The notes: generated by a model not told the origin, from the letters alone. Shown: positions 1 through 4,440, numbered from the stretch's first letter. The stretch is 32,000 nucleotides of DNA from Candidatus Hermodarchaeota archaeon (GCA_048886185.1 JBHLKY010000017.1:30001-62000), one strand, 5' to 3'. Translations and numbers: made by a program.

Positions 1-48
1 CTCACATCCGATACATTTTTCAATGAATATTTGTGCTGTCAATTTCAC
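1..48 (-). CDS. HgcB-like 4Fe-4S ferredoxin, 5' fragment (runs off the left edge; not in ORF track)
   Basis: Reverse complement of 48..1 reads GTG AAA TTG ACA GCA CAA ATA TTC ATT GAA AAA TGT ATC GGA TGT GAG = (M)KLTAQIFIEKCIGCE. EKCIGC is the start of a CxxCxxCxxxC ferredoxin motif. It starts 12 nt after the stop of the hgcA-like gene, with GAGGA at 55..51; the alternative start is TTG at 42. Confidence 0.75.
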   Translation of the reverse strand, partial: MKLTAQIFIEKCIGCE

Positions 49-60
49 TTTCCTCTAAAA

Positions 61-1722
61 TTATAATAACATGTTAATTGCCGAACTCACCACTGGCAGT
101 AGTAAGGCAATCACCGCAAGAACTAACGCAGGGATTGAGAACAATACGAGGTCACTTTCCACATCAAGATGATTGGTGAATGGAGTACTACCTGCAAAAT
201 CCAAAACGACAAACATACTTACAAGTAATACCAAAGCTATCCAAAAAAGAACTGTACCAATATTATTTCCTTGATTAATGACATAGATAAAAACCAAAAC
301 TGCGTTTATTCCGCCTAAAAGAATTCCTTTCTTGAAAAACGACCTTACTGGATTCAAAATAGGATAAATCCATGCAAATAACATAGATACAGTACAACCG
401 ATAATTGTCATCTGGATCATAACATTAAACCAAAATAAAGCACCAATAATTCTTAAATATCCCAGGAAACCTGTTAAGAAGCATAAAGGAAGAAAAACGA
501 CGATTAGTATGAAAAAAGTATGTTGTATCCCCATTAAGGTCCTATAGGAAAAATCAAACTTCACTTTTCCTTGATTTTGTGTTTTATTACCGTCCCTGAT
601 AAAATCATCTATAGAATCAATATAAACTGGACCGAATTTCGGTTTCCATCCAAAATCTTTGAGTTTCTGGTGATCAACACCTGTTGCAGAGAGTTGGGGG
701 AGTATCAAATTTCTATGATTTACTACTAACTCTGCATTAAACAGACGTAATGCATCAATAACTTGAGAATGGCTAAAATGTCCACCCCCAGCAGCACACC
801 AGACATTAATGCCTGCAGAATCAATAACTAACAAGTAACAATCAATTTTTTGCTTGATTAGAGAGGAATAAACAGAATGGAGCGTCCAATAATAATTACC
901 AGTAACAAGAAAAGGTGATGTTTGTTTGGGTGTTCCTACTTTATAAAGTCCAGGTGGGACTTGTTTGCGTGTTAACAATCCATTTAAAATACACCAAGCA
1001 ACCTTTATTCGACTAACTCGGCCCAGAACAGAGTTTATTGGAGTAAAACTCACCCTCTTGGAATCAAGAGTCTCTTTCAATCTACATTGATAAAATTGGA
1101 CTGATTTCTTTAAACCCTTGTACAAGAGTTCGCATGAATAATAATCACTTAAAAGAACCTCAAAATTTCTGATTGGGGTTGTTGTTGCACTACTTCTTAA
1201 TAACATTATCTGGGAATTAATGGCCTGTTTCATTGAATATACAAATCGCTTAAATAATGAAGTGGGGATGGTTTCAGCTGCGATAAGCAAGCTTCCTGTT
1301 GTTTTTAGCAACTGACTGGTCTGTTTTATGAATAGTTCTTGTTGAAGGGGACTAAATTCCGAAAGAACAAATGTTGAAACTATAAAGTCAAACGGTCCTA
1401 GATTTTTCAGGTTATCAAATATTTGAAAATCGATAAAACTTCCTTGTATGAAATTAATGCTAACTTGTTCCTTTTCAGCAGATTTACGAGCATGATTAAT
1501 CATTTCTACTGAAATGTCCACAGCTACTACATCAAGGTCTTGTTCTGCTAATTGGATGGCTAGCTGGCCTGTGCCACACCCAATCTCTAAAATTCGGCCA
1601 ACCTTCCCGACTTTTTTTCTGATTATTTCATAAATCGAAGATGATTCAGGAAAAAGCTTATGAAACTCCTCATCATATTTATCAGGTTCCTTTTCTAGGA
1701 TTTTCATGTAAATAAGACTCAT
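61..1722 (-). CDS. Fusion: class I SAM-dependent methyltransferase + HgcA-like (CdhD/AcsD-related) corrinoid domain + HgcA-type transmembrane domain
   Basis: N-terminal ~215 aa: motif I RILEIGCGTG, motif II VVAVDIS, FDFIVSTFVLSE. Middle: VPPGLYKVG-P---SPFLVTGNY, YLLVIDSAGINVWCAAGGGHF, LILPQLSATGV, FGPV, all hallmarks of the HgcA corrinoid domain. C-terminal ~165 aa: several hydrophobic helices with DFAGSTPFTNHLDV, matching the HgcA NFTGS(T/S)xxTSxSGV motif. The symbol is withheld because the canonical GK of the cap helix is GG. Confidence 0.9.
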   Translation of the reverse strand: MSLIYMKILEKEPDKYDEEFHKLFPESSSIYEIIRKKVGKVGRILEIGCGTGQLAIQLAEQDLDVVAVDISVEMINHARKSAEKEQVSINFIQGSFIDFQIFDNLKNLGPFDFIVSTFVLSEFSPLQQELFIKQTSQLLKTTGSLLIAAETIPTSLFKRFVYSMKQAINSQIMLLRSSATTTPIRNFEVLLSDYYSCELLYKGLKKSVQFYQCRLKETLDSKRVSFTPINSVLGRVSRIKVAWCILNGLLTRKQVPPGLYKVGTPKQTSPFLVTGNYYWTLHSVYSSLIKQKIDCYLLVIDSAGINVWCAAGGGHFSHSQVIDALRLFNAELVVNHRNLILPQLSATGVDHQKLKDFGWKPKFGPVYIDSIDDFIRDGNKTQNQGKVKFDFSYRTLMGIQHTFFILIVVFLPLCFLTGFLGYLRIIGALFWFNVMIQMTIIGCTVSMLFAWIYPILNPVRSFFKKGILLGGINAVLVFIYVINQGNNIGTVLFWIALVLLVSMFVVLDFAGSTPFTNHLDVESDLVLFSIPALVLAVIALLLPVVSSAINMLL

Positions 1723-1761: not shown

Positions 1762-1768
1762 TTATATA
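1762..1768 (-). promoter_or_regulatory. Candidate TATA box for the methyltransferase-hgcA-like gene
   Basis: Minus strand reads ...CCAGAGATATATAAG...: TATATAA about 40 nt upstream of the ATG at 1722, preceded by a purine-rich BRE-like stretch. Positional inference only. Confidence 0.35.
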
Positions 1769-1859: not shown

Positions 1860-2846
1860 ATGAAGGTGAAGTGTCAAGCCTACTGCAGCAAATGTTACCA
1901 TGAAAAAGGGAGGACACAAGAATATGATCCCAACGATTTAATCTGGTTCTGTTCGAGTTGTAAGAAGAATTTTTTATGTGAGATTGGTGTTACAAAAGGT
2001 TTTCAGGCAGGTACCACAGTCTACTCGTGCACAATTTGCAGTAGACCCTTAATTAAAGAAGAAGTTGATAAATCTATAATAACAAAAAAATCTGTTCCTA
2101 GCCAACAAAAAAAGACGAGGGATCTATATCAAAAGCTTTTGGTATCAGAAAATAAGTTCAAAACAAGGAAATGGTGGCAGAAGTCTAATACTCAAATAAT
2201 TCCTTTACCTCGTTTAGAACAGTCACAAATCAGTGAATTATGTGATATTGATGGGTTAACAGTCCCTCTTCTAATAGAATTCGCGCATGAATTCCATATC
2301 AAGAATTTTAAAGCTTATGATAAAATTAAGACAGTTCAAGAGCTTCTATCTAGGTTGGCAAAAGAGGATCAGACAATTACTTCAACCTTATACTCAGCTT
2401 TAGTTCAAAGAGACTCGATACCACTTGCTTTTAAATTACGATTTGCAGTTTTTTGTAACTCTCAATTCAAGGAAAAAAGACGAATAATTTTACCTCATAA
2501 TTCAATTGATTATGAAGGATATGATATGAAACTAGTTGAACCTTCAATGAAGGAAACATGGATATTTTGCTTGGAAGAGGACATAGATATAGACAATTTG
2601 GAGAGATTAGCAAAAAGAGTTTTTAATGTTGATTTTAAGAATTTTCCAAAGCTAAAAGAGATTTTTCTTGTTGCAAAATCATTTTCTTATCTTGCAAAGG
2701 GATTGTTAGCTAAATATCAATCTGTTTTCACAGGTGTTGACACTCCTCCTGATGAAAGCACTACTGGATTGTGGCGATCAATTCCTCTCTCATTATGGCA
2801 ACCTAAACATTGTAAGAACGATTTTGAAAATGTTTCACTTAAATGA
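1860..2846 (+). CDS. Hypothetical protein with N-terminal Cys-rich Zn-binding domain
   Basis: 8 Cys + 1 His in the first 60 aa (C5, C9xxC12, H14, C31xxC34, C40, C57xxC60). The remainder is soluble alpha/beta and not confidently assigned. Confidence 0.7.
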   Translation: MKVKCQAYCSKCYHEKGRTQEYDPNDLIWFCSSCKKNFLCEIGVTKGFQAGTTVYSCTICSRPLIKEEVDKSIITKKSVPSQQKKTRDLYQKLLVSENKFKTRKWWQKSNTQIIPLPRLEQSQISELCDIDGLTVPLLIEFAHEFHIKNFKAYDKIKTVQELLSRLAKEDQTITSTLYSALVQRDSIPLAFKLRFAVFCNSQFKEKRRIILPHNSIDYEGYDMKLVEPSMKETWIFCLEEDIDIDNLERLAKRVFNVDFKNFPKLKEIFLVAKSFSYLAKGLLAKYQSVFTGVDTPPDESTTGLWRSIPLSLWQPKHCKNDFENVSLK

Positions 2847-2905: not shown

Positions 2906-3439
2906 TTGATGTTCTTGAAACCCGAAGAGAATAAATCATTTCTAGATAAACTTCGAAATTTCATGTATTTGCCCGAAATATTTGCCATCATTCTACCCCA
3001 AGCTGGTTTAATTATTTTTTTCCTTGTCTATTCAAATTCAGAAATAAATACTGTACCTGAACTAAACCTTATGATCTATTCATTTTGGATTTACCTTGCT
3101 ATCCCTGGACTTATCAGTGGTATATTAACACGAAATTCTAATAATGGATTTGAAATTACCTTTCTTAGTGGAATAATTGTATTTCCGATTTTAGCTAATA
3201 GTAGTTATATACTAGGATTTATCCTCAAAGGATCAGAGTTATCCCTATGGACATTTATAATAATAATAATATTTGGAATAATAATCGGAATTTTTACAGG
3301 TTGTTTTGGCTATATAGGAGGATGGATTGGCAGTAGAGTCTTTTCTTATTCATATCCCAAAGAAAAACGCCCCCCTTTCGAAATAATAAAGCAAACTGTT
3401 CAAAAAATTATCTTTAGAATTAAAAATTTTGAGTCTTAG
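2906..3439 (+). CDS. Small integral membrane protein, hypothetical (likely ATG start at 2909)
   Basis: 4-5 hydrophobic segments with Gly-rich helices (GLISGILT, GIIIGIFTGCFGYIGGWIG). GTGAGG RBS upstream. Confidence 0.7.
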   Translation: MMFLKPEENKSFLDKLRNFMYLPEIFAIILPQAGLIIFFLVYSNSEINTVPELNLMIYSFWIYLAIPGLISGILTRNSNNGFEITFLSGIIVFPILANSSYILGFILKGSELSLWTFIIIIIFGIIIGIFTGCFGYIGGWIGSRVFSYSYPKEKRPPFEIIKQTVQKIIFRIKNFES

Positions 3440-4440
3440 TTTTGATTGAGATGAATGATGACTTCTGCTTCAATAAATGAGGCTGTGAGACCATAAAATC
3501 GGTTTTGAGCATCTCTAAGAGTATCCAAACAGGATATCTCCCATAGATGTTCTATTTCATTAAACGTAACGTTCCAAGCAATACGAGTATCAGAACCAAG
3601 TTGGAACTTGAATTTTTGATAATCTAAAGTTCGTTTTGCTTCTTCAATAACAGATTCAATGGCAGAAAAATCCCAATCCGACTGATTATAGGTTAGAGAA
3701 GTATAATTGTATGTTTTCACGGGAGTTTGAGATAATTGATTTACATAGGAAATTGAGATAGCTTTGTCCTTTTCCTTTATTGTCCAACGAAATATTGGAA
3801 TGATATCAGGGGAGGTGGAAGTGGGGGAGTGAATGACAATTGTTACGACTTCAAAAGATCCATAAATACCCAAGAGAAAAATGAAGAGGATACTGATAGA
3901 GGTAGCGACCCTTTTAAACTGGATAGATGAATATTTTTCTGGATCTGTAATCTTTCTATAAAGAAAGCGGAGAACAAGTATAGAGGAAAGTATTGTAATC
4001 ACGGGATCGAAAACAGAGATAGTACTACTGGTAATTCGCTGATCAACGAGAGGATAAAACAGTGGTAAACCCCCTTGAGTAATAATATCCATAAAAAGAT
4101 GCAAACAGAAACCAAGCATACCCCAAACAACTGTTTTAAAACTCAATTTTGTATGTAGCCCATGAAAGGGTACCTGTAACCGTTTAATGAATATTGTTTT
4201 TTCAAAATGTTTTGTTGAAAGAATTACTGCCATCACCATAAATGGGGCAATAAACACTGTATGAAATAAGCCTCGATGTTGAAGGATGAATAATTGTGGA
4301 ATGAGTGCTGGTAGCCATGTAAAAAATACATCAAAGTCAGGGGTTAATCCCCCAAGTAGGAAAGCACGGGAAGAATCTTCATCCTGACGAATCTGATTAG
4401 CAAGGGCAACACTAACAATGATATGGGTGAAGAAATCCAT
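3436..4440 (-). CDS. Membrane-bound metal-dependent hydrolase (YdjM/YbcI-like)
   Basis: Family motifs MDxxTH, GGLTPDFD, HRGLFHT, HLFMDII, GxPLFYP in a hydrophobic N-terminal half. Confidence 0.85.
   Translation of the reverse strand: MDFFTHIIVSVALANQIRQDEDSSRAFLLGGLTPDFDVFFTWLPALIPQLFILQHRGLFHTVFIAPFMVMAVILSTKHFEKTIFIKRLQVPFHGLHTKLSFKTVVWGMLGFCLHLFMDIITQGGLPLFYPLVDQRITSSTISVFDPVITILSSILVLRFLYRKITDPEKYSSIQFKRVATSISILFIFLLGIYGSFEVVTIVIHSPTSTSPDIIPIFRWTIKEKDKAISISYVNQLSQTPVKTYNYTSLTYNQSDWDFSAIESVIEEAKRTLDYQKFKFQLGSDTRIAWNVTFNEIEHLWEISCLDTLRDAQNRFYGLTASFIEAEVIIHLNQN

Follow-up and report, generated by a model that had tools for sequence, protein, structure and literature searches.

What is encoded where a gene for a corrinoid protein fused to a methyltransferase is followed, almost without a gap, by a ferredoxin gene that runs off the end of the sequence under study? 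This question is raised by the left end of a 32,000-nucleotide (nt) stretch from a Candidatus Hermodarchaeota archaeon (GCA_048886185.1, JBHLKY010000017.1:30001-62000; here G000:C17:30001-62000), referred to below as the window, in a 4.84-Mb genome of 35% GC in 75 contigs. To our knowledge, HgcAB is the only enzyme known to make methylmercury. An earlier note on the window, made from the sequence alone, had read the locus as a complete operon of a methyltransferase-hgcA-like gene and an hgcB-like gene. The answer reached here, which we hold with good confidence from sequence comparison, is that the ferredoxin would be a subunit of a two-gene, membrane-bound methyl-transfer system that uses S-adenosylmethionine (SAM) and cobalamin, and that this system is a deep-branching relative of HgcAB rather than a canonical member.

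The minus strand behind the TAA of the fusion gene (63..61) reads TTTTAGAGGAAA, then GTG AAA TTG ACA ... TGT ATC GGA TGT GAG, identical to what the earlier note had given. From the GTG, an uninterrupted open reading frame (ORF) of 89 codons occupies C17:29779-30048, equivalent to L001 9779..10048 when the contig is read beyond the window. The gene had gone unlisted because the window edge cuts it, as the note supposed, and 222 nt of it lie outside. Within the window lies the 5′ end (1..48, minus strand): 16 codons if the GTG (48..46) is the start, 14 if it is the likelier TTG (42..40). The whole product has 87–89 amino acids (aa). The gap between the fusion stop and the ferredoxin start is 12 nt with GTG and 18 nt with TTG. 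A GAGG that resembles a Shine-Dalgarno sequence, and presumably serves as one, stands at 52..55 (minus strand), with 3 nt between it and the GTG and 9 nt between it and the TTG. The frame is thus open at the distance of 12 nt that had been claimed, but TTG is the likelier start, since the GAGG 9 nt ahead of it, a public gene call of 87 aa on the same 117,836-bp contig (P0123) and the N-termini of orthologues (M-T/V-A-x-I-F) all agree with it; the difference amounts to two residues. The sequencing runs found to contain the stretch are of sediment-metagenome DNA only, with no RNA run among them; the stretch may have come from two of these runs.

The protein read from the adjacent sequence has both of the CxxCxxCxxxCP motifs that the earlier note expected there, with no early stop. 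In GTG numbering, the first motif consists of C12, C15, C18 and C22-P23, completing CIGCEWCVNVCP, and the second of C43, C46, C49 and C53-P54 (CIECGACTLQCP), within the HgcB signature CIECGAC. Behind the second motif come LGCGC (C65, C67), a basic helix and a terminal cysteine, C89 (...QSSC). C65 and C67 stand at +12 and +14 from the second motif, which is the place of HgcB Cys73, a residue located 13 positions past the last cluster cysteine in D. desulfuricans ND132. Cys73 of the ND132 protein is essential and shows strict conservation, one of the two residues Cys94 and Cys95 is enough, and the length and cysteine number of the tail vary (Cooper 2020, PMC7305189). By the sequence criteria of that study, the ferredoxin carries every residue known to matter in HgcB. 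The C-terminal cysteine that had been looked for is present as a single residue, in addition to the cysteines at the Cys73 position.

Among databases of protein families, the top NCBIfam match of the ferredoxin is HgcB_ferredoxin (NF040864; 69.1 bits, E 2e-19), followed by generic ferredoxin families at E 1e-8 to 1e-11, while Pfam returns dicluster Fer4 families only (E ~1e-10), of which PF00037 (43.7 bits, cut-off 21.1) and PF13187 (42.6 bits, cut-off 27) pass their gathering thresholds. Because of these NCBIfam and Pfam matches, the ORF is a real gene and no chance frame. The HgcB model matches 29 places in the genome at E<=1e-5; the ferredoxin studied here is the best of them (69 bits), and the second best (49 bits) belongs to a second HgcA-like locus. 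A word-indexed search for relatives of the ferredoxin gave few sequences. Three proteins that pass the HgcB cut-off with 128–134 bits (P0129, P0130 and P0134) are 43–50% identical to it, and in their alignment C67 matches the sole extra cysteine (GxGC) of true HgcB, C65 is additional and two residues earlier, and the terminal CC of true HgcB matches the single terminal cysteine of the query.

The fusion gene that precedes the ferredoxin (61..1722, minus strand) encodes 553 aa, comprising a CpaM-type SAM methyltransferase, an HgcA-like corrinoid-binding domain and a domain of five predicted transmembrane helices. Residues 2–192 (1147..1719, minus strand) are assigned to a class I SAM methyltransferase domain with the motif EIGCGTG, for which the best methyltransferase family is CpaM, the corrinoid protein-associated methyltransferase (NF043040, 140.5 bits; Methyltransf_25 at E 1e-17; also Foldseek). 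The HgcA-like region, residues 253–547 (82..966, minus strand), is matched by HgcAB_like (NF043039, 208.9 bits over residues 254–517), HgcA (NF040863, 189.2 bits over residues 253–547), CdhE, the acetyl-CoA decarbonylase/synthase gamma subunit (NF003195, E 3e-20 over residues 254–378), and PF03599 (E 1e-15), as well as by Foldseek. Its cap helix reads NVWCAAGGG (residues 306–314; 781..807, minus strand), with glycine in the position of the canonical lysine; Cys309, which presumably serves as the lower cobalt ligand, does not vary among 28 fusion proteins. The transmembrane helices are predicted within residues 391–545 (88..552, minus strand) and placed by AlphaFold2 at 391–422, 428–456, 462–483, 488–512 and 518–545.

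The AlphaFold2 model of the fusion protein, built with 28 homologues, has a mean predicted local distance difference test score (pLDDT) of 86.4 and a predicted template-modelling score of 0.79, and in it the methyltransferase has a Rossmann fold, the corrinoid domain is of alpha/beta type, and there are five long helices at 391–545. The deposited HgcAB model 9a0b_A is its top Foldseek match (E 4e-12; 337 columns at 29% identity), and class I SAM methyltransferases come next. The PDB sequence set contained no solved HgcA or HgcB structure, and the sequence matches there were to CFeSP and generic methyltransferases only. A search of the genome found no CdhD or CdhE, and the sole PF03599 members are two HgcA-like genes, namely this fusion and one on contig C4; the corrinoid domain is therefore not a stray remnant of carbon monoxide dehydrogenase/acetyl-CoA synthase, in agreement with the earlier note, which had argued against a CdhD remnant. 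The system on contig C4 is unfused (G000:C4:110800-114591; L003 704-1357, 1447-2430 and 2434-2652, all plus strand). It consists of a separate cpaM-like methyltransferase of 217 aa (NF043040, 134.4 bits), an HgcA-like protein of 327 aa (GVNVWCSAAGGHF) and a 72-aa ferredoxin whose second motif ends in CE, not CP, and which has neither a Cys73 equivalent nor a C-terminal cysteine.

The pairing of fusion gene and ferredoxin gene is widely conserved. The fusion protein has 697 relatives at E<=1e-10, and the best 120 of these are nearly all 520–560 aa long, with methyltransferase plus PF03599; they stem from Hod-, Hermod-, Heimdall-, Loki/Promethe-, Odin- and Thorarchaeota as well as Anaerolineae, and their sources label them merely as “methyltransferase domain-containing protein”. 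In a collection of species genomes, 514 loci possess the fusion gene, and the neighbourhoods of 80 of them, from Asgard archaea, Bathyarchaeia and Chloroflexota, were inspected. A ferredoxin gene lies directly behind the fusion gene in 75 of the 75 assessable loci (71 complete genes, one cut by a contig end and three missed by the first pattern), so the proposed operon order is kept throughout; at the other five, the contig ends within 112 nt of the fusion gene. Apart from L060, with a distance of 200 nt, the complete ferredoxin genes (70 of 71) start no more than 65 nt from the fusion stop. All 78 aligned partner ferredoxins match the HgcB model (E <= 1e-5).

Both full motifs are present in 62 of the 71 complete partners, a cysteine at +10 to +16 in 61, GCGC in 59 and a cysteine within the last six residues in 61, and the ten exceptions are Chloroflexota versions with a degenerate first motif and no tail. 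In the clade closest to the query (L012–L019), the fusion proteins are 48–56% identical to it and the ferredoxins measure 87–91 aa, ending in CC (Hodarchaeota-type) or in a single cysteine (Thor/Heimdall-labelled and also the query); most orthologues have CC. Partner ferredoxins of the query clade are the most HgcB-like among those tested, at 69–71 bits versus at most 49–51 elsewhere. Within the same GTDB genus, 9 of 18 genomes keep a full-length orthologue.

Single polypeptides also exist that join the HgcA-like part (A) to the ferredoxin (B), or the methyltransferase (MT) to both. For example, P0107, P0178 and P0184 are triple fusions of methyltransferase, HgcA-like domain and dicluster ferredoxin, 582–589 aa in length, that nest within the A-B fused group in the tree. 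Given the conserved pair and these fully fused A-B and MT-A-B forms, the two genes make up one functional unit. Twenty of 30 A-B fused HgcAB-like proteins have no cysteine after the second cluster. Since most A-B fusions and the genome's own C4 ferredoxin are without the cysteine-bearing tail, it is a specific and retained feature of the MT::A + B system. One locus, L033 (DATKTW010000069.1), is labelled Candidatus Nanopelagicaceae bacterium and has a typical Loki-type cluster of arsR, acr3, fusion and hgcB-like genes, with a ferredoxin nearly identical to that of the uncultured archaeon L035; its contig was probably mis-binned into an actinobacterial metagenome-assembled genome.

How close the fusion protein stands to canonical HgcA was judged from a search with its residues 236–553 against 1.84 billion representatives, which gave 950 matches at E<=0.001, the best 150 of which were sorted by features. 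Among these 150, proteins of 320–400 aa without extra domains have NVWCAAGKG, and A-B, MT-A and MT-A-B proteins have G, R, T or C at the canonical K. The canonical clade has the lysine of N(V/I)WCA(A/G)GK in nearly all of its 78 rows, and GK is limited to this clade. An IQ-TREE phylogeny (LG+C20, 133 rows) unites the GK proteins in one clade, with a support of 100 in the Shimodaira-Hasegawa-like approximate likelihood-ratio test (SH-aLRT); the query does not belong to it and groups with P0019 and P0026 in a small MT-A clade (support 99). When five Asgard CdhE C-terminal domains serve as outgroup, the canonical clade again receives 100 and the query clade lies within a basal polytomy of several lineages. 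A midpoint-rooted tree had hinted at the query clade as sister of canonical HgcA (support 78–91), and this relation was dropped because the CdhE outgroup left the base a polytomy. Since the query is outside the GK clade and its basal placement is a polytomy, the fusion protein is best regarded as a deep relative of HgcA, outside canonical HgcA and not clearly in the A-B fused clade. Lin 2023 (PMC10083202) places Asgard sequences in a “fused HgcAB” subtree and describes the removal of the first 327 poorly aligned alignment columns; it is our guess that the N-terminal methyltransferase fusion may have dropped out through this trimming.

Whether the two proteins also associate physically was addressed by complex prediction. 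The HgcA-like part and the ferredoxin gave an interface score (ipSAE) of 0.51, compared with 0.02 for the best of three controls; the runs agree in at least 87% of contacts, and the pLDDT of the partner is at least 68. In calibration, 58 of 80 solved complexes attained the mark for a pass, as did 2 of 110 mismatched pairs, and passing scores of 0.60 or lower came from just 7 of the 80 solved complexes plus both mismatches, which makes 0.51 a weak pass. A deposited HgcAB model exists, and likeness to it may add to the score. Canonical HgcAB has been purified as a complex (PMC11588087). Because of the covalent A-B and MT-A-B fusions, the invariant adjacency and the weak-pass prediction taken together, a physical complex of fusion protein and ferredoxin is very likely, the contacts themselves being modelled.

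Purified HgcAB methylates cob(I)alamin with SAM, a donor shown only in 2024 (PMC11588087). A mechanism can be proposed for the present pair, with all of its steps inferred from HgcAB biochemistry (PMC11588087), from a model of HgcAB (PMC7305189) and from the domains present. Low-potential electrons from the ferredoxin clusters would generate or regenerate Co(I) on the corrinoid, and the fused CpaM-type domain would bind SAM and methylate Co(I) to CH3-Co(III). The latter, ligated by Cys309, would then pass its methyl group to a thiophilic acceptor held or delivered by C65, C67 and C89 of the ferredoxin. C65 and C67 begin its C-terminal helix and may form, with C89, a thiol arm for such a ligand; Cys73 and Cys94/95 of HgcB have been proposed to hold or deliver the acceptor in a similar way (PMC7305189). 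The acceptor class is most likely a soft metal or metalloid.

Several points weigh against this account. Each of the curated NCBIfam cut-offs exceeds the corresponding score: 99 bits for NF040864, an equivalog cut-off, versus 69.1 for the ferredoxin, 180 for CpaM versus 140.5, 275 for HgcA versus 189.2 and 285 for HgcAB_like versus 208.9, the last match covering the HgcA-like part only, with the ferredoxin a separate ORF behind the TAA. The HgcB hidden Markov model proposed as a check in the earlier note gives the top match of the ferredoxin, at a score under its threshold. With both proteins scoring under the HgcA and HgcB cut-offs, a cap helix devoid of the canonical lysine and an HgcA-like domain outside the canonical clade, “hgcB-like” is the right wording for the ferredoxin on its sequence. 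The complex score is a weak pass only. Canonical HgcAB uses SAM without a separate methyltransferase (PMC11588087), and the part of corrinoid loader is therefore one that we infer for the fused domain, which could instead methylate a second site or substrate; the role of this domain is the main uncertainty of the mechanism. Finally, no neighbour of the query locus indicates a substrate, its flanks being a cysteine-rich ORF and an Arf-like GTPase gene.

As to what is methylated, a tentative view, to which we give limited weight, is that the Asgard pair may be a self-contained SAM/cobalamin metal(loid) methylase acting on arsenic or antimony in an ars-linked Loki clade and possibly on mercury or another soft metal in the query clade. 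The clues come from the flanking ORFs of the 71 loci with complete pairs, which were clustered and, where recurrent, annotated. In a Lokiarchaeial (Promethearchaeota) subclade, 25 of the 71 loci have a gene for ACR3 arsenite efflux (TIGR00832, 274.7 bits) beside the fusion gene, and in 24 of those 25 it is upstream on the same strand (median 43 nt; for example L042:1888-2967, plus strand). An ArsR/SmtB regulator is nearby in 30 of the 71, mostly divergent upstream (for example L046:2433-2825, minus strand). The order in this subclade, within L021–L089, is arsR / acr3 - fusion - hgcB-like - two small ORFs (106 and 111 aa), often followed by YdjM. Conserved neighbours in the query clade, such as a methyladenine glycosylase gene (5 loci), were also considered as substrate clues and were rejected, as they look like plain synteny.

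These associations speak for the first of the narrower readings, in which the system would serve detoxification by methylating arsenic or some other metalloid (As, Sb, Se, Te) through a cobalamin route distinct from ArsM. Three-thiol coordination is typical for As(III), and the three free thiols of the ferredoxin (C65, C67 and C89) could provide it. The ars-linked proteins, however, are just ~30% identical to the query, no ars genes neighbour the query locus, those of L012–L019 or those of the Chloroflexota clade, and ArsR/SmtB regulators sense other metals too, so that this reading is rather doubtful for the query.

The system could also be a bona fide mercury methylase, in other words a functional HgcAB whose HgcA gained a SAM-binding methyltransferase domain of its own. 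Both cluster motifs, the Cys73 equivalent and at least one C-terminal cysteine are present, the features named in PMC7305189, as are the cap-helix cysteine and five predicted transmembrane helices. Furthermore, SAM is the methyl donor of HgcAB (PMC11588087), and the query clade has the most HgcB-like partner ferredoxin of those tested, complete with CPHQ, CIECGAC and the tail cysteine, which 20 of 30 fused HgcAB-like proteins do not have. On the other side stand the scores of both proteins below the curated cut-offs, the cap helix without the lysine of nearly all 78 canonical rows, and the position of the HgcA-like domain outside the canonical clade (SH-aLRT 100) in trees with and without the CdhE outgroup. 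In addition, a tested non-canonical relative, the Pyrococcus furiosus fused HgcAB, did not methylate mercury, according to a passage in PMC10083202 that cites Podar 2015. Taken together, the system is probably not a classical mercury methylase, and we regard that function as unlikely.

Slightly less credible still is a corrinoid that acts reductively, for instance in halomethane dehalogenation, or on an organic acceptor such as a natural product or lipid, and not on a metal. Dechlorination of CCl4 by heterologously produced HgcAB has been described in a 2026 preprint (10.64898/2026.04.26.720869), and a gene for a 232-aa Fe-S protein weakly like QueG and reductive dehalogenases (L001 7903-8601, plus strand) lies 1.2 kb beyond the ferredoxin gene. 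The scores of this Fe-S protein for QueG and reductive dehalogenase are 71 and 59 bits, both far under the cut-offs. The fused SAM methyltransferase has no obvious part in reductive dehalogenation, however, a thiophilic ligand best explains the conserved thiol tail, and the query locus has no biosynthetic context, which renders the proposal improbable. Weakest is the notion, very improbable and largely refuted, that a generic electron carrier has come to lie beside the fusion gene by chance: small 2x[4Fe-4S] ferredoxins are abundant, as the 29 HgcB-model matches in the genome illustrate, and the query gives E values of 1e-8 to 1e-11 with many unrelated ferredoxin families as well, but its HgcB match is by far the genome's best (69 versus at most 49 bits), it retains the HgcB-specific extension with the conserved cysteine, the adjacency holds in every assessable locus across Asgard archaea, Bathyarchaeia and Chloroflexota, and covalent A-B and MT-A-B fusions exist.

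Some further features of the locus may be listed. A TATATAA at 1762..1768 (minus strand), 40–46 nt upstream of the fusion-gene ATG, is a possible archaeal TATA box. A divergent ORF of 328 aa (window 1860-2846, plus strand) is cysteine-rich, with several N-terminal CxxC pairs; it has no Pfam or NCBIfam match and is not conserved beside the operon in relatives. A convergent gene for an Arf-family small GTPase (L001 8818-9765, plus strand; PF00025, E 6e-37), with a C-terminal extension of ~140 aa, ends 13 nt from the hgcB-like stop, at a point 236 nt left of the window. The gene is of a kind typical for Asgard archaea, and a link to the operon is not apparent. A YdjM-family membrane protein (PF04307, 78 bits) is encoded at window 3436-4440 (minus strand), 1.7 kb upstream on the operon strand with two opposite-strand genes between. 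A link between it and the YdjM of the Loki operons was rejected, since the identity is 20–30% over the YdjM domain and the gene is absent from L012–L019.

A literature search found no paper that uses the names “CpaM”, “corrinoid protein-associated methyltransferase” or “HgcAB-like”, and none that deals with the N-terminal methyltransferase fusion, the arrangement MT::A + B, the HgcB-type thiol tail of this arrangement or an assay of it. A SAM methyltransferase that nature has joined to an HgcA-like protein, in a conserved fusion always accompanied by a ferredoxin with HgcB thiols, offers a tractable sister system for HgcAB. Such a system could help to learn what is methylated by the HgcA superfamily and in what way SAM, cobalamin, Fe-S clusters and cysteines act together. 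That the genome has a pair of HgcA-like systems, of which only one possesses the thiol tail, would make a good experimental contrast. There is also a practical side, as surveys of hgcAB in sediments that accept loose model matches could count these Asgard genes as mercury methylators; the cap-helix lysine and the curated cut-offs separate them from canonical hgcAB. Should the metal(loid) methylase proposal prove true, the system would add to ArsM a second enzymatic way of making methylated metalloids, sediment Asgard archaea would be overlooked producers of methylated toxic elements, and the fusion would lend independent genomic support to SAM as the ancestral methyl donor of the HgcA superfamily.

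Among known systems, one point of comparison is CFeSP/CdhE (AcsC) of the Wood-Ljungdahl pathway. The corrinoid domain is homologous (PF03599; 4djd_C and 2h9a_A, E 1e-7, residues 255–376), and an Fe-S centre reactivates the cobalt. In contrast to the fusion protein, CFeSP has no transmembrane domain and no cap-helix cysteine (CdhE ...GVESAVAGG). Its methyl group derives from methyltetrahydrofolate or tetrahydromethanopterin by way of a TIM-barrel methyltransferase, not from SAM.

A second is HgcB itself (NF040864; D. desulfuricans ND132). The query ferredoxin, at 87–89 aa versus 93–100, has in common with it the two CxxCxxCxxxCP motifs, C(I/M)ECGAC, CPHQ, a helical C-terminal extension that opens with a conserved cysteine, a C-terminal cysteine and a gene directly behind that of a corrinoid membrane protein. 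It differs in its score (69 bits versus the cut-off of 99), in GCGC instead of GxGC, in one terminal cysteine instead of the usual CC, and in a partner that is a non-canonical HgcA with a methyltransferase fused to it, no cap-helix lysine and a place outside the canonical clade.

A third is the pair of CpaM and HgcAB-like proteins (NF043040/NF043039; known from Podar 2015 and Lin 2023 as “fused HgcAB”, for example in Pyrococcus furiosus). The same three modules are always encoded together in both systems, and both have a cap helix without lysine, NVWCAA(G/T/C)GG. The order of fusion is permuted: in the query the methyltransferase is joined to the N-terminus of the HgcA-like part and the ferredoxin is separate, whereas in the catalogued form CpaM is separate and the ferredoxin is at the C-terminus. 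The query ferredoxin also keeps the HgcB-type cysteine tail that 20 of the 30 fused forms are without, and its clade is a separate deep lineage in the trees, not nested in the A-B fused group. The association with CpaM is present here in its strongest form, a covalent fusion, and the MT::HgcA-like protein with its ferredoxin is a variant architecture of the three-module system that NCBIfam catalogues as CpaM plus an A-B fusion.
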